From sequence record SRR31156797_7473: 41,937 bases of DNA; one strand, 5' to 3'. Below are positions 2,311 through 24,392 of the stretch, in pieces; position 1 is the first letter of the stretch; each line of letters opens with the position of its first letter. A program made the translations under genes and the position numbers. The notes beneath the pieces were generated by a model, which worked only from the letters and a program-made list of their open reading frames with translations, had not been told where the DNA came from and ran no database searches.

Positions 2311-2394
2311 AATAATTTCGATACTTTTTAGCGGGTTTATTTGATTGGTCTGTCGCGGGGGCGCGGTAGTTAACTTTGAGATTTGGAGGATGAT

Positions 2395-5214: not shown

Positions 5215-7302
5215 CTATTTTGAAACGGACACGAAGTGTTCCTGCATGGCGACGGCTCCGCCACCCTTGTCCCACTTCTTAATGCCCTTGGAGAGGAGCA
5301 GGTTGTCAGCAGCTCCCATACCCTTGGCGCGGGATTCACACGGCAGCTTGTGGTCGAAGCCGTGGATCATGAAGATACACTCAGGGTGAACAAAGTCTGT
5401 AACAAATGCTCTGATCTTGGATGAATAATCAACGTTTGAAACAGTGACATAGTCATCGTTTTCGATACCCAGTTCTTCGGCACGCTTGGTGTTAATCCAG
5501 AGAACGTTCTCAGGCATGCGTTCGAAGAGCAGTGCGTTGTTCACGGTGTGTCCCTGAGTGTGCAGGGCGCAACGACCAAAGGTGATGCGGAATTTGCCTT
5601 CCGGCGCACGCTCGGGGGATTCATAAGGTTTCAGGGACGGCAGACCGTCAGCTTCCAGCTTGGCGTCAATCATCTGAACCTTGCCGGATGGTGTCTTGAA
5701 AGACCCTTCCTTAACAGGTTTGAACAGAGGATCAGATGCCAGGGAAACAATGCCGGTGGCGTCGAAATCGGACAGGGATACGCCGGTTCCGTCCAACTGG
5801 AAGTTCCAGATGTCTTCAATGTTCTCGTAGACCAGTTCTTCCAGACCGAAACGTTTAGCCAGACCGGAGTATATTTCCCAGATGGCTTTGGTGTCGTAGA
5901 CTGGCTGGACAGCGCGTTTGCGGATCTGGAAAGCGGGCTTGGGACCGTTCTTGGTCATGATGGTGTCATCACGTTCCAGATAAGGCGAGATGGGCAGCAC
6001 TACGTCGGCATTCCATGCTGTGTCGGACCAGGAGAAGGTCGGGACGACCAGCAGTTCGATGTTGTCCCACAAGGTTTTGACGTGCGGGGCATCGGGGTAA
6101 GCCATGAGCGGATCATGCCTGTGACAGATATATGCCTTAACAGGATACGGCTCTTCCTCAACAGCGGCTTCATACGCGAGATGAACCAGACCGGGGCCAG
6201 CATCAAAGTGCTTGCGGCCTTCCATCCAACCAACACCGTCGGCACGTTTGCCTTCCGGCTTGGGATAGAGATTCATGAAGCTGTTCAGCCCCTTGGCTCC
6301 AACATCACCCGGCTTGTTCATGAACGGCAGGCCGCCCTTGGCACCGATAGCACCCATGAGGGAGTTGATGATGTATATTGTGCGGGACATATAGAAAGAG
6401 TCATTGTAACGGGCAGTCATCCAGCCGGGATGCCAGAGGATGGACGGCGCAGCTTCAGCCAACTGGTGACAGAAGTCACGGATGGCGTCGGCTTTGATGC
6501 CGGTTTCTTCTTCGGCCCATTCGGGGGTGTACTGTTGGACAAATTCCTTGAGCAGGTCAAAGTCTTCAACCCAATTGGCAACGAAGTCTTTGTCATACAA
6601 TTCCTCATTAATAATGACATTGATAACGGCGAGGTTGAAGCCGTAGTCAGTGCCGGGGCGGATCATGAAGAAGTTGTCGGACTTGGTAGCCGGGACGTTG
6701 GCACGAATGTCAATGACGGAGAGCTTACAGCCGTCGGCCATTGAATTGAGCAGGTTGTTGACCTCAGCCACGTTTACGGCTTCGAAAATGTTGCGTTGCT
6801 GCAGAATGACGTGCTTGGCATTTTTCAGGTCGTAGGAAACGCCTTTGCGACCGAAACCAAAGACGGACAGGGCTGCGTTCTGGACGTTTCGAGCGCATGC
6901 AGAGTCATGGTTATTGTAGTTGGCTGTGCCGATGCCACGCAGGAATGCGCGGTAGAAATCACGGAACGGTCCACCGCGATCGGAAAACAGAACGGAATCC
7001 TTACCGTATGTTTCCTGAATGCGTTTCAATTCGTCGGCAACATAGTCCAGGGCTTCGTCCCAAGACACTTGCTTCCATTTACCCTCACCCCGTTTGCCCG
7101 TACGAACCATGGGATATTGGGGACGTTCTTCATCATAGGTCAGGGCCGTTCCGGCAGCTCCACGAGGACACAGAGATCCCATGATGCCCGGTGCATCGGG
7201 ATTTCCCTGAATATACTCAGCTTTACCGTCGACCACTTCGACTTCAATAGGGCAGCGCACAGAGCACATGCCACAGATACTTTTCACATATTCCTTACTC
7301 AT
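5215..7302 (-). CDS. molybdopterin (Mo/W-bisPGD) oxidoreductase catalytic subunit, PhsA/PsrA thiosulfate/polysulfide-reductase-like, no Tat signal
   Basis: N-terminal CGMCSVRC...LCPRG FS0 motif, HDSAC metal-ligand Cys region, SDTAWNADVVLP, YLER, FKTPSGK and a C-terminal molydop-binding domain. GGAGGAG RBS. Confidence 0.88.
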   Translation of the reverse strand: MSKEYVKSICGMCSVRCPIEVEVVDGKAEYIQGNPDAPGIMGSLCPRGAAGTALTYDEERPQYPMVRTGKRGEGKWKQVSWDEALDYVADELKRIQETYGKDSVLFSDRGGPFRDFYRAFLRGIGTANYNNHDSACARNVQNAALSVFGFGRKGVSYDLKNAKHVILQQRNIFEAVNVAEVNNLLNSMADGCKLSVIDIRANVPATKSDNFFMIRPGTDYGFNLAVINVIINEELYDKDFVANWVEDFDLLKEFVQQYTPEWAEEETGIKADAIRDFCHQLAEAAPSILWHPGWMTARYNDSFYMSRTIYIINSLMGAIGAKGGLPFMNKPGDVGAKGLNSFMNLYPKPEGKRADGVGWMEGRKHFDAGPGLVHLAYEAAVEEEPYPVKAYICHRHDPLMAYPDAPHVKTLWDNIELLVVPTFSWSDTAWNADVVLPISPYLERDDTIMTKNGPKPAFQIRKRAVQPVYDTKAIWEIYSGLAKRFGLEELVYENIEDIWNFQLDGTGVSLSDFDATGIVSLASDPLFKPVKEGSFKTPSGKVQMIDAKLEADGLPSLKPYESPERAPEGKFRITFGRCALHTQGHTVNNALLFERMPENVLWINTKRAEELGIENDDYVTVSNVDYSSKIRAFVTDFVHPECIFMIHGFDHKLPCESRAKGMGAADNLLLSKGIKKWDKGGGAVAMQEHFVSVSK

Positions 7303-7574: not shown

Positions 7575-8024
7575 ATGGCCAGTTATAGAATTAAGTTTGA
7601 CAAAAAACGGTGTATTGCCTGCGACGCATGCTTGGTTCACTGCAAAGTGAAGAACAAGGTGCCCGTAGGGATTTCCCTTAACCGTCTTACCGTGGAAGGT
7701 CCCATTGCTGACAAAGATGGGAAGCCTACCGCTAAAATTAAGTATCAGAACTGTATGCATTGCAAGAATCCTGAATGTGTTGCCGCATGTCCCACCGGGG
7801 CCATGTACAAACGCGACGAGGATGGCCTTGTGTTAGTTGATCTGAACAAATGTGATGGCTGCAAAGCATGTGTTGAAGCATGTCCTTGGTCCGTCCCCGT
7901 GTTTAACGAGGAAAGCGGCAAGATCATGAAGTGTGACTATTGCGTGGATAGGGTGGATGCCGGTGGCACACCTGCCTGCGTGACCGGATGTACAGCTCAG
8001 GCTCTGACCTTCATCCGGAAATAG
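7575..8024 (+). CDS. four-cluster 4Fe-4S electron-transfer subunit (PhsB/PsrB/DmsB family)
   Basis: CIACDACLVHC, CMHCKNPECVAACP, CDGCKACVEACP and KCDYC...PACVTGC. Confidence 0.92.
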   Translation: MASYRIKFDKKRCIACDACLVHCKVKNKVPVGISLNRLTVEGPIADKDGKPTAKIKYQNCMHCKNPECVAACPTGAMYKRDEDGLVLVDLNKCDGCKACVEACPWSVPVFNEESGKIMKCDYCVDRVDAGGTPACVTGCTAQALTFIRK

Positions 8025-8106
8025 ATTGGTGTATTCTTTCCGGCGGGGTTGCCGGAGAGCGATATTTTGGGGTCTTTTAAACTTTATTCAAGAGGAGGAG
8101 GTAACA

Positions 8107-9234
8107 GTGTTACGTTCCAAAAAAGCAGTTCTGTTGCTGGCTCTGGTTGCTGTCATGTGTCTCGTGGCAGAACCTGCATGGGCCGATCGTCTGGCTGACG
8201 CAATTGCGGAAGCCAAACCCCAGGGTGAGCCTGGCTATCTGGGCATCCCCGGTGGTCCGCAGCTCAACATCATCATCGGTCTCGTGTGGGCCATCTGGGT
8301 TGGTTGGATTTTCTCTACCGTCGGCGCATTCGGTGGTATCATGGCCGGTGTTGGTCACATTACCATTTACGGTCTTGGCGACTACGCAAGTAGCTTCGGC
8401 AAGGGTACCCACATGAACAAGGTCGTCACTGACTCCATTCGTGTGTCCAACCAGTGGTTGGTTGGTTGCTCCGCAGCTTTGTCTTCTTTCAACTACTACA
8501 AAGCCGGTCGTCTGGTGCTGCCCTTGGGTATCGCTCTGGCAATCGGTTCTGTGGCCGGTTCCTGGTTGGTTCCCTGGCTCACAGCCGGTAAGATCAGCCT
8601 GAAATCCTACCTTGGTTACTTCGGCCTGTTCGTTCTGTTCCTGGGTTGCTATCTCACCTACGAGACTACTCCCAAGGGTCAGGCTGGTAAAAAGGCTGCC
8701 AAGGAAGCTGCAACAGCTTTCCAGAATTCCGTTAAGAAGCAGCAGGACGGCGGCGAAGTCGATATGGCTGAAATGGGCGTTAAGGTCCAGAAGTTCACGC
8801 CTACCGCTTGCGAATTCACCTTCTTCGGTGTTGAATTTACCTTCAATCCGCTGATCCCGGTTGTCGGTGGTTTCTTCATCGCAGCCATGGCTTCCTTCCT
8901 CGGTGTTGGCGGCGGCTTCCTGTTGGTGCCGTTCCTGACTTCCGTTGCAGGTCTGCCCATGTACCTGGTTGCCGGTACTTCCGCTCTTGCCGTCTTCATC
9001 GGTATGGTCAACTCCATCGCTTCCTACATGCTGCTCAAGCAGACTCCGGTTGCATGGGGCCTGATCGGTGCTGAGCTTGTCGGTATTGTCATCGGTTCCA
9101 TCATCGGACCTAAGACTTCCAAGTTCATCCCGGACAGAGTCCTGAAGTACATCTTCATCGTTCTGGCCGTGTACGTTGGTGTTCGCTACACCTCCAAGGG
9201 CTTCCTGGGCTACTCCCTGGTACCCCCCTTCTAA
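8107..9234 (+). CDS. TauE/SafE (TSUP) family sulfur-oxyanion transporter
   Basis: WVGWIFSTVGAFGG, SFLGVGGGFLLVPFL and AGTS motifs. GTG 8107 follows GAGGAGG (the ORF track starts at 8026). Confidence 0.88.
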   Translation: MLRSKKAVLLLALVAVMCLVAEPAWADRLADAIAEAKPQGEPGYLGIPGGPQLNIIIGLVWAIWVGWIFSTVGAFGGIMAGVGHITIYGLGDYASSFGKGTHMNKVVTDSIRVSNQWLVGCSAALSSFNYYKAGRLVLPLGIALAIGSVAGSWLVPWLTAGKISLKSYLGYFGLFVLFLGCYLTYETTPKGQAGKKAAKEAATAFQNSVKKQQDGGEVDMAEMGVKVQKFTPTACEFTFFGVEFTFNPLIPVVGGFFIAAMASFLGVGGGFLLVPFLTSVAGLPMYLVAGTSALAVFIGMVNSIASYMLLKQTPVAWGLIGAELVGIVIGSIIGPKTSKFIPDRVLKYIFIVLAVYVGVRYTSKGFLGYSLVPPF

Positions 9235-9306: not shown

Positions 9307-9915
9307 ATGACCGGCCAAATGATTTACGAATTTCTTGATCCCTGGATGATCTGGGCATTCCGCACTAGTGATAATCCGTATGTGGGATTCGCCATAGGTC
9401 TTCTCTGGGTCTGCATCCTGACAACAGTCATAGGCGAGCTTTGCATGGCGGGTGTTTATTTTCTGAATAAACGTCATTTTGCCAAAATCAATCGTGACAT
9501 GGTTGATCATCACAATCTTTCTGTCAGGGCCTTGGGCGTCAAAGATAAGACCGCCTGGAAAGCCTGTAACTCCATTGCCAATGACGCTTTCGGTAAAAAT
9601 TTCTTTTCTCGTATGGCACTATTTGCCTCTTCCTTATGGGTAGTGCCTTTTGCTATCGGCTGGCTGTTCTATCGTTTTGGACAAGTTGATTTTGTCGTCC
9701 CATACATCGGTGCGGTCGGTCCTGCTTTTGTTTTTATTCCGATTTATATCGTCATCCGTCTTTTGTTCAGTCAAGCCAAACCATGGTTACCGTTTTTCCG
9801 CACCATTAAACAGAAGGTAAAGGAAAACGAAGCAACCGATGATATGATGACCTTTATGGATTTGGTACAAGACAAAGAACAACAGGGCGAGACGCCGATA
9901 CCGGAAAAATCCTGA
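9307..9915 (+). CDS. membrane protein of unknown function (about 3 TM)
   Basis: Hydrophobic segments and an AGGA RBS. It is co-oriented with tauE. Confidence 0.8.
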   Translation: MTGQMIYEFLDPWMIWAFRTSDNPYVGFAIGLLWVCILTTVIGELCMAGVYFLNKRHFAKINRDMVDHHNLSVRALGVKDKTAWKACNSIANDAFGKNFFSRMALFASSLWVVPFAIGWLFYRFGQVDFVVPYIGAVGPAFVFIPIYIVIRLLFSQAKPWLPFFRTIKQKVKENEATDDMMTFMDLVQDKEQQGETPIPEKS

Positions 9916-9928
9916 TTATCGATACCAC

Positions 9929-9956
9929 AAAAAAGCCGCCCTTATGGGGCGGCTTT
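9929..9956. terminator. bidirectional intrinsic terminator
   Basis: AAAAAAGCCGCCC-TTATG-GGGCGGCTTT between convergent genes. Confidence 0.85.
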
Positions 9957-9986: not shown

Positions 9987-10499
9987 TTAGGGAGCCATTT
10001 CCTTCACAGCTTCCTTGAATCCTTCAAGGTCGGAAGGGCCGAGCAGGTAGAAACGATCGGCTGTTTGAAAACACATGACGTCCGGCCTGTTGGAAACGAT
10101 GACGGCTTCTTTGTCATCCTTCACCAGAACAACTCCTGATTTATAGCCGCCGAAGCTCATGTGCTTTTTGGCTTTGATGATCTTGAAAGCTTCGTCCGTA
10201 TTGAGGTTGGCCTCAAAGGTCTTTTCCACACTTGCCCAGGGAATGACTGCGGAGGCAAAAGGTGGTGCCGCCAGCAGGATGCCTTCATCTGCTACTGTAA
10301 TGGCTGCACGTTTTGGTGTGATGTAGAGCATGTACCAATAGAAAATTGACAGTGGGCCAGCCACGGCGACCAAACAGATGCCGGTCCAGGTCAGGCCAGA
10401 GTTGAAGCTCCAAGCAACGGCTGCGGCGATCGCTGTCACAACGATCAGAAAGAGCGCTAGAATCACTCTGTGCATGGGGACTTTGTATGTAGTGGCCAT
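9987..10499 (-). CDS. 2-TM membrane protein with bacterial PH-like domain
   Basis: Two N-terminal TMs, then VIPWASV...FGGYKSG...YLLGPSDLEGF, a bPH-like pattern. AAGGAG RBS. Confidence 0.7.
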   Translation of the reverse strand: MATTYKVPMHRVILALFLIVVTAIAAAVAWSFNSGLTWTGICLVAVAGPLSIFYWYMLYITPKRAAITVADEGILLAAPPFASAVIPWASVEKTFEANLNTDEAFKIIKAKKHMSFGGYKSGVVLVKDDKEAVIVSNRPDVMCFQTADRFYLLGPSDLEGFKEAVKEMAP

Positions 10500-10649: not shown

Positions 10650-11615
10650 ATGAAAATGGATATGATGAAAACAGTATTTCTATATGGCTTTCGTGGCGTT
10701 TGGGGCGCGAGTTATCTCCTGATACTTGCAGTCATGGCCAGTGTCCTGACTGGTTGTTCTGATGAGGAAGCTGTTACAGTGGACTTGTCCAAGCGGGAGG
10801 CCTTGGTTGCTCCACGGCAGGTCGAGGCCATTACCTATGCTTATCTTCCCCAATATTCGCATACGATTTCATATCAAAGACATCGCCAACTTCTCGAATA
10901 TCTTCGTAAATCTACCGGATTACCGCTCAGGCAGATTTTCCCTGATACTTTCGATGAACATATCAAGATGGTGGAGCGAGGCGAGATTGATATTTCCTAT
11001 TCAAATCCGTTCGTTTACACGCGCCTGGCCAAAGTCGGCGCCACTGCCTTCGCCGGTATAGTTGAACCGTCAGGTCATCCTGATTTTCAAGGACAGATAA
11101 TTTGTCGAGCTGACAATTCTGATCTTAAAACCATTGAGGATTGTCGTGGAAAACGGTGGATTGCCGTGGACCCAGAGTCGGCCGGAGGTTATTTGTTTCC
11201 GCTTGGGCTGTTCTTCGACAATAATCTTAATGTGAGCGATTTCGAAACCGTTGACTTTGCTCCCGGTCCGGGTGGGAAACAGGAAAAAGTTGTTTTGGCT
11301 GTTCATGCTGGAGCTTTTGACATCGGAACAATTCGTAAAGGCACCCTCGATGTAGTTGCCGGAAAGATCAATCTCGACGATATCCGAGTGCTGGCTCAAA
11401 CCCGGTTGTATCCCGGTTGGGTTTATGCGGCCCGGAAAGGCCTTGACCCTGATGTGGTTCAAGCTATTTCTCATGCCATGTTTGCCTTGAATTATCGGCG
11501 CGAACCCGATCGTGAAATTCTGTCATCGGCTGGTATGCACGGTATTATTCCCGTGCAAGATTCAGACTATGATCCGGTCAGGGAATTGGTCGGTAAACTT
11601 GGTCTGGACCAATAG
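10650..11615 (+). CDS. PhnD/PtxB-like (phosphonate-bd) periplasmic binding lipoprotein
   Basis: Lipobox VLTGC, YAYLPQ, GEIDISYSNPFVY and VDPESAGGYLFP. There is no adjacent ABC permease or ATPase. The exact start is uncertain. Confidence 0.85.
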   Translation: MKMDMMKTVFLYGFRGVWGASYLLILAVMASVLTGCSDEEAVTVDLSKREALVAPRQVEAITYAYLPQYSHTISYQRHRQLLEYLRKSTGLPLRQIFPDTFDEHIKMVERGEIDISYSNPFVYTRLAKVGATAFAGIVEPSGHPDFQGQIICRADNSDLKTIEDCRGKRWIAVDPESAGGYLFPLGLFFDNNLNVSDFETVDFAPGPGGKQEKVVLAVHAGAFDIGTIRKGTLDVVAGKINLDDIRVLAQTRLYPGWVYAARKGLDPDVVQAISHAMFALNYRREPDREILSSAGMHGIIPVQDSDYDPVRELVGKLGLDQ

Positions 11616-11627
11616 GCGGATTGATAC

Positions 11628-13682
11628 ATGAGACTTTTCCCCAGACTTCGATTTCGTAACAAGCTCAATATGGGCATGTCGGCCATACTTATTGTAATGG
11701 CTCTTTTGTTGTTGCCCATGGTCGGGTACATGAGCGCTAATTCTTTGGTCGAAGAGAGCAAGATGCGTGGATCTTCGTTAGCCGGGAGCCTGGCTGTTCG
11801 GGCGATTGATCCTATTTTAGCTCGAGATTTTTTGCGGTTGAAGAACATGGTGGACGAACAAAGTCGGGTAGAAGACGTTGTTTACGCCTTTGTTCAGGAT
11901 AGAAGTGGTCATGTCATGGCCCATACATTCCAACGAAGATTTCCTGTTGATTTATTGACTGCCAATGGCTTGGGGGATGGCGGTAAGCTTCATATTCAGC
12001 TTTTGGAAGATGGATCACGACGGATGTATGATTTTGCGGCTCCGATAGAGGTGTCCGACGGACAGCTCGGGGTTGTGCGAATCGGTTTGTCCACGGCTCG
12101 TATAAATAGGTCCGTTCAACACCAGATTACTCTGATGGCCGGGCTGTTTGCCGGGGCTTTGATTATTGCTACGTCAATAGGAACCTATTTTGCCAGACGT
12201 GTTACTGTGCGTTTGGGGTTGCTTCGCGCTCATGCAGAAGAAATGCTGACCGGCAATTTGAATATTCAATCCTCTCCGGCTGGGGGTGTCCATTGCTGGG
12301 AGCGACGCAATTGTGAACTGACGGAATGTCCCGCCCACGGGGAAACACGGCGTCGATGTTGGTATATAGCGGGGACAATGTGTCCTGATTGCGATAATGA
12401 GAGCAATTTTCAATGTCGGTTACAATCATGTCGTGTGTGTTCTGTGTATCGGCAAAACGCTGGAGATGAGATTCAGGATCTGGCTGAGACATTTGACGTT
12501 ATGGCCGTTTCCCTTAAGACGCATATCAATGAATTGCGTTCGGCAGATCGGAGTTTGCGCGATCAGCAAAGACTTATGCGGACAATTTTGGACATGACGC
12601 CGGATCGGGTCTCTTTAATGGACGCCACCATGCGTTATCAAGCATGTAACAAGGGTTTTGCCGATTCCGTAGGGGTTTCAATTGCCGAAGTTGTGGGCAA
12701 AACGGACTTTGATCTTTTTTATGAGGGCGAAGCTGAGGAGCGCCATATGGCGGCCCGTGATATCCTTCAATCCGGCCGTCGGATTGACACTCAAATTCAG
12801 ATTAAGGGTGAAGGAAGCCAACGGTGGTTCCATGTCGTCTGTGTGCCGGTTTTGGATGCGGACGGACGCATTGACGGTCTGTTGCGCACTGATCGCGATA
12901 TTTCCGACATAAAAGGATATGAAAATCAGCTCATCCAAGCGCAGAAGATGGAATCACTCGGCTTGTTGGCTGGTGGCGTGGCCCATGAAATCAACACTCC
13001 TCTTGGTATTATCCTTGGATACTCTCAGTTGTTGCAAGAGGATGTTGAGGAAGGTGGTCAGATGTATGACGATCTGGTGATCATTGAGAAGCAGACCAAG
13101 GTTTGCAAGAAGATCGTTGCTGATTTGCTGGGATTTTCCCGCCAGACAGATTCCGCCAAGCGTGAGATGTGTTTCAATAATTCTGTTTTGGAAGCCGTCA
13201 GTTTGGTGCGACATACATTCAAGCTGGACAAGGTGGATATCCTCACTGAGATGGATGATCGGTATCCCATCATTTATGGTGATCCTGAAAAATTGAAACA
13301 GGTGTGGATCAACCTGCTGACAAACGCCCGCGATGCAATGGGCGCAGATGGTGGCACCATACTCATCAGAACAAAACTCGACACCCCTGCTGGGATTGTA
13401 TCCGTGTGGGTTGCTGACTGTGGTGTCGGAATTTCCAACGATAAATTGAAGAATATTTTTGACCCGTTTTATAGTACCAAAGCCGTGGGGCAGGGAACCG
13501 GATTGGGACTGTCTGTCTCGTTTGGTATTATCGAAGACCATGACGGCGAAATAGCGGCTACGAGTCCGTTGCCCGAAGGTTTTGGGTTCCCTGAATGTGA
13601 CGGTTATTGTGGACCGGGAACAGTTTTTGAAATCAACCTCCCTCTGGATCATCAGTCCAGAGACGGGAGCAATGAAGATTAG
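11628..13682 (+). CDS. membrane sensor histidine kinase (TM, periplasmic Cache-like, TM, HAMP with Cys-rich insertion, PAS, HisKA, HATPase)
   Basis: H-box GVAHEINTPL, N-box QVWINLLTNA, G1 DCGVG, F-box IFDPFYSTK and G2 GTGLGL. Confidence 0.93.
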   Translation: MRLFPRLRFRNKLNMGMSAILIVMALLLLPMVGYMSANSLVEESKMRGSSLAGSLAVRAIDPILARDFLRLKNMVDEQSRVEDVVYAFVQDRSGHVMAHTFQRRFPVDLLTANGLGDGGKLHIQLLEDGSRRMYDFAAPIEVSDGQLGVVRIGLSTARINRSVQHQITLMAGLFAGALIIATSIGTYFARRVTVRLGLLRAHAEEMLTGNLNIQSSPAGGVHCWERRNCELTECPAHGETRRRCWYIAGTMCPDCDNESNFQCRLQSCRVCSVYRQNAGDEIQDLAETFDVMAVSLKTHINELRSADRSLRDQQRLMRTILDMTPDRVSLMDATMRYQACNKGFADSVGVSIAEVVGKTDFDLFYEGEAEERHMAARDILQSGRRIDTQIQIKGEGSQRWFHVVCVPVLDADGRIDGLLRTDRDISDIKGYENQLIQAQKMESLGLLAGGVAHEINTPLGIILGYSQLLQEDVEEGGQMYDDLVIIEKQTKVCKKIVADLLGFSRQTDSAKREMCFNNSVLEAVSLVRHTFKLDKVDILTEMDDRYPIIYGDPEKLKQVWINLLTNARDAMGADGGTILIRTKLDTPAGIVSVWVADCGVGISNDKLKNIFDPFYSTKAVGQGTGLGLSVSFGIIEDHDGEIAATSPLPEGFGFPECDGYCGPGTVFEINLPLDHQSRDGSNED

Positions 13683-13690
13683 GAGCAGGC

Positions 13691-14050
13691 ATGGCAAATA
13701 TACTTGTATTGGACGACATCTCAGATGCCGGTGTGCTGGTCAAGCGTATTTTGGAACGGAAGGACCATACGGTTTTTAATTTTACTGAAGAGGAAGATGC
13801 GTTGAAGTTTGCGGAAGAAAATTCCGTGGATTTGGCTATTCTTGATATTAAACTCAAGAAAATGACCGGAGTGGAAGCCTTGGAAGAGTTGAAAAAGATC
13901 AACCCTGACATGAAGGCGATTATGCTCACGGGGTATCCTACATTGGAAACAGCCCGAGAGTCCTTACGGCTTGGGGCTCAGGAATATTGCGTCAAGCCTA
14001 TCAATAAGGAAGAGCTCGAAACCAAGGTTTCGGAAGTTCTAGGAGAATAA
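13691..14050 (+). CDS. single-domain response regulator (receiver only)
   Basis: ILVLDD, LAILDIKL, MLTGY and YCVKP motifs. 119 aa with no output domain. Confidence 0.93.
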   Translation: MANILVLDDISDAGVLVKRILERKDHTVFNFTEEEDALKFAEENSVDLAILDIKLKKMTGVEALEELKKINPDMKAIMLTGYPTLETARESLRLGAQEYCVKPINKEELETKVSEVLGE

Positions 14051-14051
14051 C

Positions 14052-16499
14052 GTGTACCTAAAACAACTCTTTAAGCATTGGAGCTATCAGGTTTTTGCTC
14101 CAGGCACACTTTTGCGGCGTAAATATGAAGCATTCAAGTCCCTGTTGGCGCAGGATGCTATCGCGTTGGAATTGATCGCTGACCTTGAAGAGATGTTTTA
14201 TGGAAAGCGTTTGGCTGACAGGCAACGTGCGGTTTGGATGACAAATCAGTTGTCCAATGCCGTGGGCACCATGGCTGGGCAGCTTATGGAAATGAATCCT
14301 ACACGATACATGGATTTGCCGGAATATTTTCGCAAAATTGATTTTTATGTGCGCATGGGAATGGAACTTGAGCAACCCGAAGTCGGGCCACCTTATATCC
14401 TTTCTTTGGACGAAGCGGGGGCATTCCCTGCTTTGACAGGAGGGAAGGCGGCGAATCTTGGCCGAGCCAAGGTTGAGGGTGGCGTTCCAGTTCCCCCTGG
14501 TTTCGTTGTTACGGCCAATGCCTTTAATTATTTTATAGATTTCAATGGTTTGAGCGATGAAATCGAAGGGCGTCTTCGACAGATGGAAGTCGGTAACCGT
14601 GACTTGTTGACACGATTAACCGCTGAAATGCAGGAATTGATTTTGGCTGCTGAAGTCCCGGAAGAAATCGCTCGTGGTATTCGATTCGGGGTGTCCGAAA
14701 TTATCGAGGGCGAAGATCTTATTGCGGTCCGTTCCAGTGCTCTTGCTGAAGACGGTGAAATTTCGTTTGCCGGTCAATATGCCTCGGAATTGAATGTTCC
14801 GCCAAATGATGTGCTGGAAGCATACAAACGAGTATTGGCGGGCAAGTATTGCCCTCGCGCAGTAGCCTATCGAATTTCCAATGGATTAACTGACAGCCAG
14901 ACGGCTATGGCGGTTTTGGTGTTGCCCATGGTGGATGCCGAGACTGCTGGAGTTGTTTATTCGCAGGACCCAGATTGTCGAGGCCGTGAGGCTATGGGGG
15001 TCTATGGAGTGGGCGGTCTCGGACATGGTCTGGTGGACGGGAGTATCTCGCCGGATAAGGCCGTTCTTACCCGTGAGGAAACACCTCGCATAGACAACGA
15101 GTGTACACCGGATACTGGGGGACTTCCGCCGGAAGAGACTCTGGTTGAATTGGGTCGGTACGCCATGCAGTTGGAAAAAGCACTTGGTTGTCCTCAGGAT
15201 ATCGAATGGGCCGAAGACGTGACCGGTAAATTGTTTATTCTGCAAAGTCGCCCCTTGCAGTTGGAACGGGAAGATGCTGCCTCGGATCACGAGCCGTTGC
15301 CTGTCAAACCGATTCTTGAAGGGATGGAACGAGCCTCCACTGGTGTCGGGTGCGGTGAAATTTATTATGCTTCATCCGGTGAACGTATTGCGGCGATACC
15401 TCAGGGAGCAGTCGTGGTGACACCGACCTTGCAACCTTCATTGTTGACCTTCATAGGTAATATGAATGGTGTTATTTCCGGGACAGGTAGCCGAGCCAGT
15501 CATTTCGCCTCAGTGGCTCGGGAATCAGGTGTACCTGTATTGGTCGGTGACTTGGGAACTTCTTTTGAGCCTGGACAGTTGGTCACGGTGGATGGGACCC
15601 ACGGTGCTGTGTATGACGGATGTGTTGAAGCGATCATGACCCGGTCGCGTAAAGCCAAGAAAATTTCCGAGCGAGTGGTTGCCCAGTATGCCAAAGTCGC
15701 GCCCATTGCGGTGAAACTTAATTTGGTTGATCCGCAGAGTGATAACTTTACGCCCATGGGCTGCAAGAGTCTGCATGACGTGGTCCGTTTCTGCCATGAG
15801 AAGTCCGTGAACGAGATGTTTTCCATTATGGACAAACGTGGGCGCGGTATGCATTCAGCCAGACGTTTGCAGACCAATTTGCCTCTTGTCATGTATATAC
15901 TTGACCTTGGTGGTGGGCTGTTTGGCAACGCTGGTGATGGGAAGACCGTATCGCCGCACGACATCAAATGCCGTCCCATGTGGGCCCTTTGGTATGGTTT
16001 GTCAGACGAACGCGTCGTATGGCCGAATAAGTTGACACATATGGACTGGGAAGAATTTGATAAGATCTCCGGCGGAATATTCAGTTTTGATTCCAAACTG
16101 TTGGCCAGTTATGGTCTTATTTCAGAAGATTATCTTCATCTCATGGTCCGGTTTGGTTATCACTTTTCGGTGGTCGATTCCGTGTGTGGCTCGGATGCTG
16201 GAGCCAACTACGTTAATTTCCGGTTCAAAGGCGGTGGTGCTGGGTTTGACCAACGCTTGTTGCGGCTGGAATTTATTCGTCAGGTCCTTGATTGTTATGG
16301 ATTCGTGACTGAAACTCGCGGTGACATGATCGATGCCCGATGTGCACGTTTGGACGAAAACGAGACTCAGCGTATGCTTGTACGGTTGGGCTATCTTATG
16401 GCGGTGACCCGACTCATGGATATGCGTATGAGTGATGAAGAACAGGTCCGTGAAGAAGTGAAAAAGTTCGTCAGGGATGCGGAGAGTCGTAATGGCTAA
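14052..16499 (+). CDS. PEP-synthase-like dikinase (ATP-grasp plus phospho-His swivel domain) with non-canonical C-terminal domain
   Basis: GGKAANLG, PVPPGFVVT, AVRSSA.AEDG..SFAGQY, DIEWA, LQSRP and SHFASVARE (His484). The C-terminal part lacks recognisable PpsA TIM-barrel motifs. Confidence 0.85.
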   Translation: MYLKQLFKHWSYQVFAPGTLLRRKYEAFKSLLAQDAIALELIADLEEMFYGKRLADRQRAVWMTNQLSNAVGTMAGQLMEMNPTRYMDLPEYFRKIDFYVRMGMELEQPEVGPPYILSLDEAGAFPALTGGKAANLGRAKVEGGVPVPPGFVVTANAFNYFIDFNGLSDEIEGRLRQMEVGNRDLLTRLTAEMQELILAAEVPEEIARGIRFGVSEIIEGEDLIAVRSSALAEDGEISFAGQYASELNVPPNDVLEAYKRVLAGKYCPRAVAYRISNGLTDSQTAMAVLVLPMVDAETAGVVYSQDPDCRGREAMGVYGVGGLGHGLVDGSISPDKAVLTREETPRIDNECTPDTGGLPPEETLVELGRYAMQLEKALGCPQDIEWAEDVTGKLFILQSRPLQLEREDAASDHEPLPVKPILEGMERASTGVGCGEIYYASSGERIAAIPQGAVVVTPTLQPSLLTFIGNMNGVISGTGSRASHFASVARESGVPVLVGDLGTSFEPGQLVTVDGTHGAVYDGCVEAIMTRSRKAKKISERVVAQYAKVAPIAVKLNLVDPQSDNFTPMGCKSLHDVVRFCHEKSVNEMFSIMDKRGRGMHSARRLQTNLPLVMYILDLGGGLFGNAGDGKTVSPHDIKCRPMWALWYGLSDERVVWPNKLTHMDWEEFDKISGGIFSFDSKLLASYGLISEDYLHLMVRFGYHFSVVDSVCGSDAGANYVNFRFKGGGAGFDQRLLRLEFIRQVLDCYGFVTETRGDMIDARCARLDENETQRMLVRLGYLMAVTRLMDMRMSDEEQVREEVKKFVRDAESRNG

Positions 16500-17559
16500 G
16501 GTGTGTAAATCCGCCTATCAAGTCACGTGGGTGACTGATCAACTTGGTGTAGGGCATGCACCTATGAGTCATCCGCAACTTGACGCTATCCATGCGCAAG
16601 GAGTTGATGCCATTCTCAATCTTTGTGGTGAATTTTGTGATTTGCATGACATTGAGAAAGATGCCGGATTTGAAGTCCATTATTTGCCGTTGGATGACGA
16701 GGAAGCTCCGAGTCTCATAGAGTTGGAAAAAACTTTGGAATGGCTGGATGAAGCCATTTATATTGGCAAGAAGGTTCTTATTCATTGTCGTCATGGGATT
16801 GGACGTACCGGGACTGTCCTCAATGCTTATTTATTGAGGCGCGGACTCGGTCACAAACTGGCCGGGAAGGCCCTCAAACGGCTCAAGAGTAAGCCTGCCA
16901 ACTTTGTTCAATGGCGTACCGTTCGCAAGTATGGCAAACAGTCTGGGCAACTGAATGTTCGTGAACCGTCTCTCGGGTTCAAACGGTTGGTGGATTTGTC
17001 TCCTTTTTTTAATGACTACGAAGAACTGGTTCAGCGTTTGGAAGAGAGTGGTAAGGCGACGAAAGGATTGGCTTGCGGGTTGGATCACGATCAATGTTGT
17101 ACGACGCCAGTCAGTTTGACGCTTGCAGAAGCGGTGCACATCAGCCATCGGATTAATTTGGAGTTGACGGGCGAAGAGCGTCTTGCCGTGATCGAGCGGG
17201 CTGTGAAAACGGCGCAGGCCGAACGGAGTGCGGCGCAGGATCTGGATGATGACGAGGGCGGGGATTACTGCCTGTCAGAAGTTGGTGCAGTCTGTCCGTT
17301 GCTTGAAGACGGAAAGTGTATGCTTTTTGAACATCGTCCGTTGCAGTGCCGTGCATTCGGTCTGGACCAGAGTGAACATGGGGAATTGTGGGCGAATTTG
17401 CTTACACCGGCACTCGACAAGATATCCTCCGAAATTTGGTTCGCGTATACCAGTTCCATGGTTCATAAGGAAATGCCGCATTTTGCTTTGCCGGATGTAG
17501 TGTCGGGTAAGTTTGTGGAAACTGTTTTTAAGTATATGATGGAGCAGGGGTTGGAATAG
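16492..17559 (+). CDS. CX5R (PTP/dual-specificity) phosphatase fused to YkgJ-type cysteine-cluster domain
   Basis: IHCRHGIGRTG active site. The C-terminus has CGLDHDQCC and CPLLEDGKCMLFEHRPLQCR. ATG 16492 follows GGAGAG and overlaps the upstream stop. Confidence 0.87.
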   Translation: MAKVCKSAYQVTWVTDQLGVGHAPMSHPQLDAIHAQGVDAILNLCGEFCDLHDIEKDAGFEVHYLPLDDEEAPSLIELEKTLEWLDEAIYIGKKVLIHCRHGIGRTGTVLNAYLLRRGLGHKLAGKALKRLKSKPANFVQWRTVRKYGKQSGQLNVREPSLGFKRLVDLSPFFNDYEELVQRLEESGKATKGLACGLDHDQCCTTPVSLTLAEAVHISHRINLELTGEERLAVIERAVKTAQAERSAAQDLDDDEGGDYCLSEVGAVCPLLEDGKCMLFEHRPLQCRAFGLDQSEHGELWANLLTPALDKISSEIWFAYTSSMVHKEMPHFALPDVVSGKFVETVFKYMMEQGLE

Positions 17560-17583
17560 CCTTTTAATTTTGAATGTAAAATG

Positions 17584-17618
17584 AAGGCCCTGCCGGAATA
17601 TCCGGCAGGGCCTTTTTT
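17584..17618 (+). terminator. intrinsic terminator
   Basis: AAGGCCCTGCCGGA-ATA-TCCGGCAGGGCCTT-TTTT. Confidence 0.88.
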
Positions 17619-17644: not shown

Positions 17645-19480
17645 TTACTTACGTTTTTTCGGCGTATTTCGTTGTCTTTTGGAAAAGGAATCGCTGTTGT
17701 TTCGGTGCTGTTTGCCATGATGCTTTTTGCCCTTGGGGGGCCTGCCCGTGTTGGGCATGAGGATGGCATGCTGGCGTAACCGTTCAGCATCGGTTTTGGC
17801 GACATGGATTGGGTTACCCTTCATGTCGGTTTCAGCATGGAACATGGCGGCCGCAGCCGTACCGGGCAGTGGAATAAAGCACTGCACCTGTTCAGGCTTC
17901 CAGCCTTGTGATTTGAGCCAATCGCCCAAAGCACGCATGTCATCCTCGGTGCAACCGGGAAAAGCGGACATGAGGTAGGGAATGACATATTGCTGTTTTC
18001 CTGCCTTGCGGGATTCGCGCCAGAAAAGATCCAGGAATTTTTCAAATTTATCAAAGCCGGGCTTACGCATGAGCTTGAGGACGTGGTCCACCTGATGCTC
18101 CGGCGCGACCTTGGCCTGCCCACCCACAAATTCACGAATCATGGTCGCCAGTGCGGGCATGTCGGTCAGGGCGAGGTCTATGCGCCAGCCCGAGGCTACT
18201 CGGACGTGTTTGACCGATTCGACATCATTCACAGACCTGAGCAGGTTAACGAAATCTTTTTGTGTTATTCGATAATGTTTGCATACATTCGGTGTCATGC
18301 AACTGGGACGTTTGCATTTGGATTGATCCGAGGCGCAATGCGCTCCCCACATGTTGGCGCTGGGGCCACCAACGTCGGAAATGGACCCGTTCCAACCCTT
18401 CACTTCGGTGATGGCTTTGACCTCGTTGATGATGGACTTTTTGCTCCGTGAACGGATGGTCCTGCCTTGATGCAGGGCCAAGGTACAGAATGAACAGCCG
18501 CCGGAGCAGCCTCGATGCGTGGTGACACTCGTCTGAATCATGTCCGCGGCAGGAATTCGTTGCGTGTACGAAGGGTGCGGCAGACGGGAAAAAGCAAGGC
18601 CTGCCAGTTCGTCCAGTCCGGCGGTGTCGAGCAGGGGACCGGGCGGCGTGAGCATCACTATCCGTCCTGTGGTTTCCTGTACGACCATGGCTTTGTTCTG
18701 ATGAACTTGTTGCTCCAAAAGTTCTGTAGCCTTGATGAGTTGCTGCGGGTCGGCCAGAATTGCCTCATGAGACGGCAGGGTGATGATGGGAATATTATCC
18801 GGTATATCCTTGGCGGAACCGGCCACAGCCAGTCCGGGGATACCTATCAGTTGCGGCCGAAGTGCTTTGATATTCACTTCACCGGATTCCTTAACAATAG
18901 TCTCAATGGTCTCGGCGAGAGTGACAATGGAATTTTCAGCCATGCCGTATGTGATAGCTGTGGCTTTGGAGTCCAACAGGATAGATTTGCGGACGGAATC
19001 AGACCAGAAATCATAGTGCGAAACTCGGCGCAGTGATGGTTCGATGCCACCAAGGATGACGGGCAGGCCGGGAAAGGCGCGCTGGACCACGTTCGTATAG
19101 ATCATGGAGGCTCTGTTGGGTCGCGCTCCGGCTTTGCCGCCGGGAGTATATGCGTCATCGGACCGCTTTTTGCGAAAGGCGGTGTAGTGGGCGAGCATGG
19201 AATCCAGTGAGCCGGAGGTGACCCCCGCGAAAAGCCGAGGGCGTCCCATACACATGATGTCGTCAGGTTTGTCCCATGCGGGTTGGGCAACGATTCCTGT
19301 ACGGAATCCATGATGCACCAGCCATCGGCCAAGAAGAGCCGCGCCAAAGGAAGGATGGTCTACATAGCCGTCGCCGGTAACCAGAAGTATATCCAGTTCA
19401 CGCCAGCCCAATGTCTCCATTTCCTTGCGGGTCATGGGGAGTACAGGGGGTTGGTCAAGGTGTTTTTTTTGTTCAAGCAT
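17645..19480 (-). CDS. ygiQ: YgiQ (UPF0313) family radical SAM protein
   Basis: VTGDGYVDHPSFG, HRGCSGGCSFC, SDVGGPSANM, KVAPEH and EQVQCFIP. The start is probably 19480 (ORF track 19501). Confidence 0.92.
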   Translation of the reverse strand: MLEQKKHLDQPPVLPMTRKEMETLGWRELDILLVTGDGYVDHPSFGAALLGRWLVHHGFRTGIVAQPAWDKPDDIMCMGRPRLFAGVTSGSLDSMLAHYTAFRKKRSDDAYTPGGKAGARPNRASMIYTNVVQRAFPGLPVILGGIEPSLRRVSHYDFWSDSVRKSILLDSKATAITYGMAENSIVTLAETIETIVKESGEVNIKALRPQLIGIPGLAVAGSAKDIPDNIPIITLPSHEAILADPQQLIKATELLEQQVHQNKAMVVQETTGRIVMLTPPGPLLDTAGLDELAGLAFSRLPHPSYTQRIPAADMIQTSVTTHRGCSGGCSFCTLALHQGRTIRSRSKKSIINEVKAITEVKGWNGSISDVGGPSANMWGAHCASDQSKCKRPSCMTPNVCKHYRITQKDFVNLLRSVNDVESVKHVRVASGWRIDLALTDMPALATMIREFVGGQAKVAPEHQVDHVLKLMRKPGFDKFEKFLDLFWRESRKAGKQQYVIPYLMSAFPGCTEDDMRALGDWLKSQGWKPEQVQCFIPLPGTAAAAMFHAETDMKGNPIHVAKTDAERLRQHAILMPNTGRPPKGKKHHGKQHRNNSDSFSKRQRNTPKKRK

Positions 19481-19631
19481 TATCCCCGCATGATGACCCA
19501 CACACCTTGTTAGGTCTACATCTTTTCATCTCCTTTCGTGCTTCTTGTGTGGAGTGAGGGTTTTCTTTCGTGAAAAAGTCGGGAGAAAACCCCAAACATA
19601 TCGGGATAGCTCGTATAATCTTAATTGCTCC

Positions 19632-22295: not shown

Positions 22296-22302
22296 GGTCG
22301 TC

Positions 22303-23631
22303 ATGAGCAAGCATAAAGATGAAAGAGAAGTACTCCTGTTCATGAGCGAAGTGGACCAGGCTATGTATGGTAAAGGACGTCGGTTCGCCTACATCATGTC
22401 TACGTCCATATTGTTATTGATCATTATATTTGTCGTCTGGGCAAAACTGGCCGTTCTCGATGAGGTCACTCGTGGTTTTGGTCGGGTTATTCCTTCTCAG
22501 CGCATTCAGGAAATTCAGAATCTGGAAGGTGGTATTCTGAGTGAGCTGTATGTGCATGAAGGACAGACCGTCGACAAGGGGGACATACTTTGTCGCCTGC
22601 ATAATGAGCAGGCCGCCAGCTATTATCGCGATGCATTTGGCAAGGCACTTGAGCATCGGGCAGCTATCGCCCGACTGGTTGCCGAGGTCGAAGACAGGGA
22701 CCCTGTTTTTGATGATGAACTGAAGAAAGAAGCTCCGCAGTTGGTGAATGATCAACTCAGAATTTCCAGGGCACAGCAGCAGCAGTTGAAGATTGAATTG
22801 AGCCTCCTGCAAGATCAATATGAACAGAAACAGCAGGAAGTGAATGAGATGGCCGGCCGCAAACGTCAACTTCAGCGTAGTTTGGATGTGGCGCTTAAAC
22901 AGCGTAATATTGCCAAGCCTCTTGTTGAAAAGCAGATTCATTCCGAGTTGGACTATCTGGCGTTGGAACAGCGGGTTGTCGAACTTCGGGGTGATGTTGA
23001 GGCATTGGCCTTGGGTATTCCCCGCGTTAAGCGTGCTGCCAAGGAAGCACTTGGCAGGATCGAGCAACGTAAGGCGGAATTTCGGAGTCAGGCATTGGAA
23101 GAAATCAATGAACGTCGGCTTGAATTGAATTCTATTACAGAGAATCTGAGTTCCGGTGGTGACCGTGTCACACGGACGGATGTTCGTTCTCCAGTCAAAG
23201 GTATTGTCAAACATATTATGTCCAATACGCTTGGTGGCGTTATCCGTCCGGGTGAATCCATCATGGAAGTTGTGCCGTTGGACGATACCTTGCTTGTTGA
23301 GGCCGAAATCAAGCCTTCGGATATCGCTTTTTTGCATCCAGGGCAGAAGGCACAGGTCAAGATTACCGCCTATGATTTCTCGATTTATGGAGGACTCGAA
23401 GGAACTGTCGAGAATATCAGTGCGGATACCATTGAAGATGAGAAAGGTGAAAATCATTATCTTGTCAAAGTGCGTACCAAGCAGAACGCCATTGTGTATC
23501 GGGGGCAACGATTGCCTATTATCCCGGGCATGACCGCTGGAGTGGATGTCCTGACCGGTAAAAAATCGGTGTTGGATTACCTTTTGAAACCGATTCTCAA
23601 AGCAAAGCAGAACGCACTTAGGGAGCGTTGA
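22303..23631 (+). CDS. HlyD-family T1SS periplasmic adaptor (LapC-like)
   Basis: IQNLEGGIL, VRSPVKGIV, KITAYDFSIYG, IIPGM and VLDYLLKP. Confidence 0.95.
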   Translation: MSKHKDEREVLLFMSEVDQAMYGKGRRFAYIMSTSILLLIIIFVVWAKLAVLDEVTRGFGRVIPSQRIQEIQNLEGGILSELYVHEGQTVDKGDILCRLHNEQAASYYRDAFGKALEHRAAIARLVAEVEDRDPVFDDELKKEAPQLVNDQLRISRAQQQQLKIELSLLQDQYEQKQQEVNEMAGRKRQLQRSLDVALKQRNIAKPLVEKQIHSELDYLALEQRVVELRGDVEALALGIPRVKRAAKEALGRIEQRKAEFRSQALEEINERRLELNSITENLSSGGDRVTRTDVRSPVKGIVKHIMSNTLGGVIRPGESIMEVVPLDDTLLVEAEIKPSDIAFLHPGQKAQVKITAYDFSIYGGLEGTVENISADTIEDEKGENHYLVKVRTKQNAIVYRGQRLPIIPGMTAGVDVLTGKKSVLDYLLKPILKAKQNALRER

Positions 23632-23662
23632 TTACCCCATGCGAGTTATTTTGGGGAGACAT

Positions 23663-24340: not shown

Positions 24341-24344
24341 GGCA

Positions 24345-24364
24345 CGCCTTCCCGTAGGAAGGCG
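24345..24364 (+). other. intergenic hairpin without U-tract
   Basis: CGCCTTCC-CGTA-GGAAGGCG between lapG and the HD-GYP gene. Confidence 0.5.
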
Positions 24365-24392
24365 ACACCATAAACCAGATGGAGAATTGACT

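Follow-up and report, generated by a model that had tools for sequence, protein, structure and literature searches.

Positions 10650-17559 of SRR31156797_7473, a 41,937-nucleotide stretch of DNA called the window throughout, hold an operon of five genes, which encode a PhnD/PtxB-family solute-binding protein (SBP), a membrane histidine kinase (HK), a lone receiver (REC), a dikinase-family enzyme and a Cys-based phosphatase. Judged by its gene order, domains and gene sizes, this operon, which is conserved among sulfate-reducing bacteria, is the signalling half of a further member of the "nitrate cluster" published from Desulfovibrio (Korte et al. 2014, PMC4001038), and it is therefore not the undescribed system that a preliminary description of this DNA had taken it to be. 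The whole chain, from sensor to permease, can tentatively be read as a two-component system of the thiosulfate type with a phospho-switch as its output, a reading to which we give a probability of about 45%.

The operon and its five proteins

The five open reading frames (ORFs) are co-oriented on the + strand, with intergenic gaps of 12, 8, 1 and -8 nucleotides when the ATG at 16492 is taken as the start of the phosphatase, and the operon is closed by a single hairpin terminator at 17583-17615. The arrangement is as the preliminary description had it, and its assignment of the products (PhnD-like lipoprotein, HK, receiver-only response regulator, dikinase and CX5R phosphatase) is borne out by Pfam. 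It also stated that the five proteins have no DNA-binding domain, and Pfam indeed finds no DNA-binding family in any of them at E<=0.01. The features of the operon, with lengths in amino acids (aa), are as follows.

10650..11615, + strand: PhnD/PtxB-family solute-binding lipoprotein, putative oxyanion sensor partner of the kinase (321 aa; PF12974)
11628..13682, + strand: membrane histidine kinase with the layout TM1-sCache_3_2-TM2-HAMP-PAS-HisKA-HATPase_c, TM being a transmembrane segment (684 aa; Pfam and hydrophobic segments)
13691..14050, + strand: single-domain response regulator, receiver only (119 aa; PF00072)
14052..16499, + strand: dikinase-family enzyme (815 aa, GTG start; PPDK_N and His domain)
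16492..17559 (alternative start 16477), + strand: Cys-based dual-specificity-type phosphatase (355/360 aa; Pfam and P-loop)
17583..17615: intrinsic terminator ending the operon, also a hairpin on the - strand (15 pairs, 10 of them G-C, and a T-run)

The lipoprotein has the lipobox LTGC and a Phosphonate-bd domain (PF12974, 193 bits). Its nearest solved relatives are PtxB (7e-14), HtxB, PhnD, ArrX (1e-9) and AioX (2e-4). In NCBIfam, a stretch of it weakly matches the TtrS sensor, and its scores for the PhnD and selenate-SBP equivalogs do not reach the cut-offs. In the kinase, sCache_3_2, PAS_4, HisKA and HATPase_c are all over their Pfam cut-offs, while HAMP reaches 22.6 bits (cut-off 25). The hydrophobic segments of the kinase, residues 15-33 and 167-185, lie on either side of the periplasmic sCache domain; no hydrophobic segments were found in the receiver, the dikinase or the phosphatase. 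The best NCBIfam matches of the kinase are kinases of the AtoS/ZraS type, none of which reaches its cut-off.

The receiver matches Response_reg only (84 bits, Pfam). Residues D8, D9, D52, T80, Y99 and K102 are invariant in 40 orthologs; D52 is presumably the phospho-acceptor, and we take the others to be the usual receiver residues. Mean column identity is 75% for the receiver, 58% for the phosphatase and 51% for the dikinase. The kinase and receiver genes are adjacent in 40 of the 63 loci that have at least 3.6 kb of upstream sequence, and this adjacency suggests that the kinase passes its phosphate to the lone receiver.

The dikinase-family enzyme consists of an N domain (residues 1 to ~125), an ATP-grasp domain (128-410), a swivelling His domain (449-518) and a C domain (~530-815). 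The ATP-grasp part matches PPDK_N (225 bits, 128-410) and the His part matches the mobile domain of the PEP-utilizers (PEP, phosphoenolpyruvate; PF00391, 51.7 bits, 449-518), while Pfam has no match before residue 128 or in 519-815. His484, within SHFASVARE, is invariant in 40 orthologs, as are the GGK and RSSAxxED motifs and Q398/R400 of the ATP-grasp domain. The residue two before the catalytic His is Ala (RASH); in PPDK and PpsA, the Thr two residues before this His is presumably a regulatory site. With an ATP-grasp domain followed by a swivelling phospho-His domain, the enzyme has the same order as PEP synthase and PPDK, but the TIM barrel is replaced by an N domain of ~125 aa and a C domain of ~285 aa, neither of which has a clear counterpart in the PDB.

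The model of the C domain (530-815) has a pLDDT of 80. Foldseek returned nothing from the PDB for this model at E<=1e-3, which does not make the fold new, and profiles of the N and C domains found nothing in the PDB below E 0.04. The best VIA Z of the model, 7.0, lies within the common range of this tool and comes from a 69-residue ferredoxin/ACT-like piece around the conserved FRFKGGG loop. An invariant His, Arg and Asp are retained in the C domain together with the Gly-rich loop, and a protein atlas search with this domain recovered its own family only.

An ordinary PEP synthase that lies by chance beside a two-component system and a phosphatase is favoured by names in databases, for instance "pyruvate, water dikinase" or "PEP/pyruvate-binding domain-containing protein", and by the match of the ATP-grasp and His domains to PpsA. 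However, the TIM barrel, PEP-utilizers_C (PF02896), has no Pfam match in the enzyme at E<=0.01, and the NCBIfam scores, 258 and 244 bits, fall well short of the 598 and 740 required for PpsA. The fold searches with the C-domain model gave no clear match to a TIM-barrel enzyme, which decides nothing by itself. The PDB matches to PpsA, RPH (rifampicin phosphotransferase) and PPDK extend solely across the ATP-grasp and His parts. In G001, the nearest genome compared (63% of sampled words in common with the window), a canonical frame with PPDK_N and PEP-utilizers_C lies elsewhere, and the three dikinase-family members are all without the barrel. Together with the kept synteny and the natural fusions described below, the missing barrel and the low scores leave an ordinary PEP synthase or PPDK extremely improbable, as the preliminary description had also assumed.

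The phosphatase matches the Pfam families Tc-R-P (65 bits) and DSPc (47.8 bits, cut-off 33.5). Its P-loop is HCRHGIGR (HC99X5R105), and H98, C99, R105, T106 and D69 are invariant in 32 orthologs. The nearest solved relatives are small protein tyrosine phosphatases, which we take to be of the archaeal type, followed by DUSP23; LSF2 (1e-5) and PTEN match at weaker E-values. In the Cys-rich C-terminal part, there is a weak CxxCxxCC match, below the cut-off (E 0.0017). A TGA was flagged within the phosphatase match of two genomes, G391 and G531; in G391, the one examined, it lies outside the ORF and gives no sign of selenocysteine.

Relation to the nitrate cluster and other known systems

The nitrate cluster, DVU0251-DVU0245 and Dde_0597-0605 of Desulfovibrio, comprises genes for TauE, a conserved hypothetical protein, a PtxB-like SBP, a PAS/HAMP kinase, a receiver-only regulator, a protein with PPDK_N and mobile domains, and a dual-specificity phosphatase (DSP) (PMC4001038). 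From TauE through the phosphatase, its gene order and annotation are the same as in the window. The receiver gene has 360 bp in both, the phosphatase gene 1110 bp versus 1068-1083 bp in the window, and the gene of the hypothetical protein 588 versus 609 bp; DVU0246 is annotated with 2235 bp, compared with 2448 bp for the window dikinase. The window differs from the nitrate cluster in genus, in an extra bPH gene on the opposite strand, in a PhsAB-like reductase upstream and in having no DUF169 gene, which D. alaskensis G20 has. The genes of the window that correspond to the first two genes of the cluster, and those around them, are as follows.

5215..7302, - strand: cytoplasmic molybdopterin oxidoreductase, PhsA-like (Pfam; best NCBIfam match PhsA)
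7575..8024, + strand: 4Fe-4S dicluster protein, PhsB-like (Fer4_11, 96 bits)
8026..9234, + strand: TauE/SafE (TSUP) family anion permease, long form (PF01925, 90.7 bits; true start uncertain)
9307..9915, + strand: orf202, small membrane protein and constant companion of this TauE (three hydrophobic segments)
9932..9956: bidirectional terminator 3' of orf202, dividing the Fer4-TauE-orf202 unit from the signalling operon
9987..10499, - strand: bPH_5 membrane protein between the two units (Pfam)

In both Desulfovibrio species, D. vulgaris and D. alaskensis G20, transposon mutants of the TauE, SBP, receiver and dikinase genes are strongly enriched at 100-150 mM nitrate (PMC4001038). Loss of the cluster confers resistance to nitrate, not to nitrite, and the phosphatase mutant of D. 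vulgaris stays nitrate-sensitive, with a fitness of -6.04 that is confirmed by single mutants (PMC4001038). Since the sensor, receiver, writer and permease mutants of D. vulgaris have the same sign and the eraser mutant has the opposite one, these phenotypes fit a writer/eraser pair acting on TauE function. Korte et al. proposed a leaky thiosulfate transporter as the entry route of nitrate, and the nitrate-cluster mutants of G20 are mildly sick on thiosulfate (PMC4001038). No mechanistic account of the cluster or of the dikinase family beyond that of Korte et al. was found by searches with locus tags and topic, which covered few subscription journals. The family-wide picture, that of a dikinase-fold family with its own N+C module, tied to kinases and lone receivers and having a dedicated phosphatase, was not found in print either.

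TauE has a signal-like N-terminus and a large central loop and is highly conserved; orf202 matched no family in Pfam or NCBIfam. Among 301 genomes of the phylum Desulfobacterota, orf202 is present in 56, and TauE adjoins it in 39 of the 40 orf202 loci compared phylum-wide, the exception being cut by a contig end. The commonest neighbour of the TauE-orf202 pair is a close PhsA-like subunit (22 of the 40 loci, in 19 of them together with an Fe-S subunit), while an SBP is found in 4/40. Based on these counts, the metabolic core consists of TauE-orf202 and the cytoplasmic PhsAB-like enzyme, and the dikinase-phosphatase layer is a lineage-restricted addition. The idea that TauE-orf202 always occurs with a dikinase-family gene, which held in 4/4 genomes first checked, was dropped when phylum-wide comparison gave 1/40 loci. 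In six of 15 dikinase-phosphatase loci, a different TauE subfamily or a PhsA-like gene lies beside the dikinase.

The best NCBIfam match of the PhsA-like molybdoenzyme is PhsA itself (503 bits, cut-off 694). Since its Fe4S4 domain begins at residue 5 and leaves no room for a twin-arginine translocation (Tat) signal, the oxidoreductase should be cytoplasmic. Tat-less PhsAB-like enzymes have been linked to thiosulfate disproportionation by proteomics, and in Dissulfuribacter thermophilus, TauE, its co-occurring transmembrane protein, a "PEP synthase" and the Tat-less PhsAB-like enzyme are all higher during this process (PMC13490349). The "PEP synthase" is DITHS69_1988 in Table 2 of that paper, beside the TauE pair 1989/1990, while the text gives DITHS69_1161 and reads it as gluconeogenesis. 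It may be a member of the window dikinase family, and the Dissulfuribacter proteomics agrees with a thiosulfate role of the TauE/PhsAB-like module.

The sensor part of the operon resembles several known oxyanion-sensing systems. PhnD-like sensor domains of ThsS and TtrS sense thiosulfate and tetrathionate, respectively (PMC5408782). In these two and in AioX, ArxX and ArrX with AioS/AioR, a PhnD-family module senses the oxyanion for a kinase encoded beside the molybdoenzyme of that oxyanion (PMC5408782, PMC5908839). All of these systems end in DNA-binding regulators, whereas the window receiver lacks any output domain. Moreover, the PhnD-like module of TtrS and ThsS is fused to the kinase, while the window encodes this module separately, as a lipoprotein, beside a kinase with an sCache domain of its own. 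By analogy with ThsS and TtrS, and from the gene context, the ligand of the SBP would be thiosulfate.

Rifampicin phosphotransferase, PigC/RedH and phenylphosphate synthase are repurposed dikinase folds, in which phosphate from ATP passes through a phospho-His to an acceptor other than pyruvate. They are alike in principle to the window dikinase, and their weak NCBIfam matches to it cover the ATP-grasp part only. In the RPH type, the His domain is C-terminal, whereas here it is central (449-518 of 815), and the score for NF041857, 168 bits, is far from its cut-off of 999. In plants, glucan water dikinase is paired with the glucan phosphatases SEX4 and LSF2 on one substrate. This pair also combines a dikinase writer with a DSP-fold eraser, but it is an analogy only: its domain order differs, control in the window is by a two-component system, and Pfam finds no carbohydrate-binding module in the window dikinase or phosphatase. 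CheY and DivK are likewise receiver-only proteins that must act via protein contacts, while the window lacks a flagellar, chemotaxis or cell-cycle context.

Distribution and gene neighbourhood of the dikinase family

The set of related loci numbers 79, drawn from the best 80 among the 374 relatives found in species genomes, and leans to close kin. Of the 51 loci with full flanks, 32 retain SBP, HK, REC, dikinase and phosphatase, far above chance, and the neighbourhood is thus conserved, as the preliminary description supposed. Nine others have the dikinase and phosphatase only (Maridesulfovibrio), nine have TauE, orf202 and the dikinase only (Desulfobulbales), and one has none of these partners. 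TauE and orf202 lie within the flanks of 29/51 loci, and a kinase is encoded within 5 kb of the dikinase in 50 of 57. Of 15 further dikinase-phosphatase loci, 11 hold a receiver ortholog (E<=1e-55); the constant core is therefore the receiver, the dikinase-family protein and the phosphatase, usually with the SBP and the kinase.

The phosphatase is present in 25 of the 301 genomes of the phylum and, in 21 of these, its gene lies directly 3' of the dikinase C domain on the same strand. Other positions, read in 24 of the 25 genomes, are one shuffled dikinase-SBP-HK-REC-phosphatase arrangement, one contig start and one DSP-only gene beside orf202. In the locus set, the phosphatase follows the dikinase in 59 of the 72 loci that have enough downstream DNA. 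Natural fusions of the dikinase and the DSP phosphatase, P0177 (1252 aa) and P0191 (1205 aa), also exist; their clusters hold 12 and 4 member sequences, and one member, which is seen on up to 21 contigs, is named Syntrophobacteraceae bacterium. Functional coupling of dikinase and phosphatase is supported by this adjacency and by the fusions. No fusion of receiver and dikinase was seen among four loci with long open frames, in two of which the extension could be read and has no receiver domain. A complex prediction for the dikinase and the receiver gave a score of 0.00, which counts neither for nor against binding. In a Desulfomicrobium locus (L018), the gene of a CheX-type receiver phosphatase (11520-12032, + strand) lies directly 3' of the DSP phosphatase gene.

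With a profile of the C domain, the dikinase family is found in 253/301 genomes of the order and in 113/301 genomes of the phylum, in 70 of 199 genera, and a library of 1.84 billion proteins yields 1356 representatives at E<=1e-3. Six representatives of 1037-1061 aa (P0258, P0260, P0267, P0268, P0269 and P0273) have an extra C-terminal extension of ~215 aa. Weak matches to lectin/ConA-like domains, below the cut-off, occur in P0268 and in the shorter fragment P0259 (661 aa).

Several dikinase-family paralogs are encoded per genome. Each of the 11 full-length paralogs examined, from four genomes, lies no more than 5 kb from a histidine kinase and/or a lone receiver, and most are near both; the sample comprises two paralogs from G001 and nine from three genomes of two other families, with two of G589 left out. 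The paralogs of G001 are 857 and 862 aa long (loci L085 and L086). One lies 3' of a dCache kinase and three tandem lone receivers and 5' of a 468-aa protein without a family, and the other is surrounded by genes for kinases, lone receivers, an NhaB antiporter and a DASS (Na/sulfate-type) transporter.

Truncated members of the family take two forms. In Maridesulfovibrio and Desulfomicrobium, TauE-orf202, or TauE-orf202-SBP-HK, is followed by a degenerate dikinase paralog of 565-680 aa that lacks GGK, RSSALAED and the His domain (L097, 3459-5501, - strand; L098; L099; L100, 9649-11346, + strand), and the full dikinase-phosphatase pair of these genomes sits elsewhere. From their sequences, these short paralogs look like pseudo-enzymes. 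The other form, seen in two other lineages, is a protein of ~393 aa with the N and C domains only, the ATP-grasp-His cassette being precisely absent, which keeps the C-domain motifs and adjoins the phosphatase and the receiver (L151, 9308-10489, - strand; L158, 8414-9547, + strand). Since such proteins exist, the N+C module is a unit of its own, and the ATP-grasp-His cassette is inserted into it.

The window also holds other genes. The bPH_5 gene is kept in 12/51 full-flank loci, mostly in Pseudodesulfovibrio and other Desulfovibrionaceae, and its product is probably outside the signalling system; Pseudodesulfovibrio is also the name borne by the best protein matches of the window proteins. 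A convergent radical SAM gene (17645-19501, - strand; Radical_SAM_N 358 bits, faint DUF3362) has its terminator region in common with the operon, and none of the 79 related loci has a tblastn match to it. Genes of a type I secretion set (19743-26495, + strand) encode a C39-peptidase ABC exporter, an HlyD protein, a BTLCP transglutaminase-like protease and a PAS-HD_5 protein. Beside it, 29503-40953 (- strand) encodes a giant protein of 3816 aa with cadherin, Big_9, VWA and RTX domains, and together they resemble what we take to be a Lap-type adhesin system with a periplasmic protease. At the other end of the window are further genes for anion and sulfur transport: a gene of the DASS Na:sulfate-symporter family (1-1389, - strand) is cut by the window edge, and the ORF at 2383-3477 (+ strand) has a Sulf_transp (YeeE/YedE-like) domain.

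Proposed mechanism and its alternatives

In the proposed mechanism, the periplasmic SBP would bind a tetrahedral sulfur oxyanion, most likely thiosulfate, and signal to the sCache domain of the kinase, which would phosphorylate the 119-aa receiver on Asp52. The output would be a cytoplasmic phospho-switch rather than DNA binding, with the phosphorylated receiver acting on the dikinase. The dikinase would transfer a phosphate from ATP through the swivelling His484 to an acceptor held by the N+C module, and the Cys99 phosphatase, which is translationally coupled to it and fused to it in some lineages, would strip the phosphate from this acceptor. In the Desulfovibrionaceae, the switch would turn on the TauE-orf202 permease, feeding the cytoplasmic PhsAB-like thiosulfate reductase, and this permease would admit nitrate too. 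Within this chain, it is the ligand, the action of the receiver on the dikinase, the nature of the acceptor and the post-translational control that we infer.

Several observations weigh against this mechanism. The chain names no acceptor, and nothing here points to a protein target. The 40 orf202 loci hold a receiver in 7, a phosphatase in 2 and a dikinase in 1, and an orf202 match is found in only 9/25 phosphatase genomes. The 393-aa N+C forms, which have neither ATP-grasp nor His domain, lie beside the phosphatase in two loci, so that the phosphatase is not always accompanied by a neighbouring writer. In L151, a 507-aa REC-sigma54-HTH_8 regulator is encoded directly 5' of the lone receiver, and from this one locus a transcriptional branch is possible. 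The orthology to the DVU0245-0251 and Dde_0598-0605 proteins rests on gene order, domains and gene lengths, and in neither protein search do the best 120 matches include a protein of D. vulgaris or G20. The G20 phosphatase mutant has a fitness of +2.08, like the other cluster mutants, the pooled and single-mutant data for DVU0250 of D. vulgaris disagree, and the D. vulgaris kinase is a pseudogene, yet the receiver and dikinase mutants show the phenotype (PMC4001038). Of the writer/eraser pair put forward in the preliminary description, the coupling is favoured by adjacency in 21/25 genomes and by the fusions, and the opposite roles fit the D. vulgaris phenotypes, while the positive fitness of the G20 phosphatase mutant speaks against such roles. 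The suggested link to the TauE/Mo-reductase module likewise finds support in the D. vulgaris mutants, but TauE-orf202 is not a constant partner (9/25 genomes, and 1/40 loci with a dikinase).

The lone receiver might itself be the effector. Like CheY, it would bind the permease or the reductase, or compete with a DNA-binding regulator, while the dikinase and phosphatase set its phosphorylation; the dikinase could, for example, serve lone receivers as a non-canonical phospho-His donor or relay driven by ATP. This alternative, which we consider improbable, is in keeping with the receiver being the most conserved protein of the set, with six of the 40 TauE/PhsAB-like loci that have a receiver but no dikinase, some of them in one operon with the reductase, and with the presence of only paralog-level dikinase matches in two genomes that have such dikinase-free receiver loci. 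It would also suit the paralogs that adjoin arrays of one to three lone receivers, and the CheX-type receiver phosphatase gene of the Desulfomicrobium locus. However, we know of no Cys-based DSP phosphatase that acts on acyl phosphates, and the invariant His, Arg and Asp and the Gly-rich loop of the C domain suggest a catalytic or ligand site, which would be needless if the receiver self-phosphorylates. Dikinase and receiver knockouts share a phenotype (PMC4001038), although either order of action fits. Alternatively, the dikinase and phosphatase may make and break a small phosphorylated molecule, such as a metabolite, an activated oxyanion or a second messenger, whose level is set by the two-component system. 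All characterised dikinase-fold enzymes of which we know have small molecules or glucans as their substrates (pyruvate, rifampicin, phenol and starch), and the ACT/ferredoxin-like sub-part of the C domain with its conserved FRFKGGG loop (VIA Z 5.3-7.0, weak) points in the same direction. So do the best Pfam match of the phosphatase, a DSP family named from polymorphic toxin systems, its weaker matches to glucan and lipid phosphatases (LSF2 and PTEN), and the ~215-aa extension of six representatives, with its weak lectin-like match in one of these and in P0259. This is more doubtful still. Several paralogs per genome, each with a kinase and receivers, fit signalling better than one metabolic step, the nearest solved relatives of the phosphatase are protein tyrosine phosphatases, and no biosynthetic or metabolic genes recur in the examined loci.

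A transcriptional output is the least probable of these three. A sigma-54-type regulator, encoded outside the operon, would then be a second phosphorylation target of the kinase, leaving the receiver, dikinase and phosphatase as a side branch or phosphate sink. Kinase and receiver do match families of the NtrB/NtrC type best (AtoS/ZraS for the kinase; NtrX/ZraR/AtoC for the receiver), the REC-sigma54-HTH_8 regulator stands directly before the receiver in L151, and another sigma-54 regulator is found near TauE in L022, where the kinase is not orthologous. On the other hand, no sigma-54 activator domain occurs among the scanned ORFs, a subset of those of the 41.9-kb window, and matches to the -24/-12 consensus number 23, versus 24 expected, with none in the two promoter regions. 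A sink would also leave unexplained why dikinase mutants copy those of the receiver and TauE (PMC4001038). The receiver as effector, the small molecule and the transcriptional output are not mutually exclusive.

Beyond this operon, proteins that combine PPDK_N, a His domain and the N+C module might form a class of output or relay enzymes of two-component systems that has gone unrecognised in Desulfobacterota, acting as receiver-gated phosphate writers, although we regard this generalisation as somewhat unlikely. Such writers could phosphorylate a transporter, an enzyme or a small messenger, and one subfamily could have a dedicated, sometimes fused, Cys-phosphatase as its eraser. The dikinase family does recur beside many other kinase-receiver sets of the phylum, and in the window, an ATP-grasp/phospho-His enzyme and a Cys-phosphatase take the place of a transcription factor at the end of a complete chain of sensor, kinase and receiver. 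The cluster is accompanied by genes apparently for taking up and reducing thiosulfate, an intermediate at the centre of the sulfur cycle. Nitrate is a chemical used in the control of oil-field souring, and loss of the nitrate cluster is a route to nitrate resistance in Desulfovibrio (PMC4001038). As mutants (among them DVU0246 and DVU0245 mutants of D. vulgaris) and genetic tools exist for D. vulgaris and G20, both the acceptor and the logic of the switch are directly testable. If the generalisation to a class of receiver-gated writers holds, this class would represent a new branch of His-Asp signalling, through which anion transport and sulfur respiration are controlled rapidly and without transcription.

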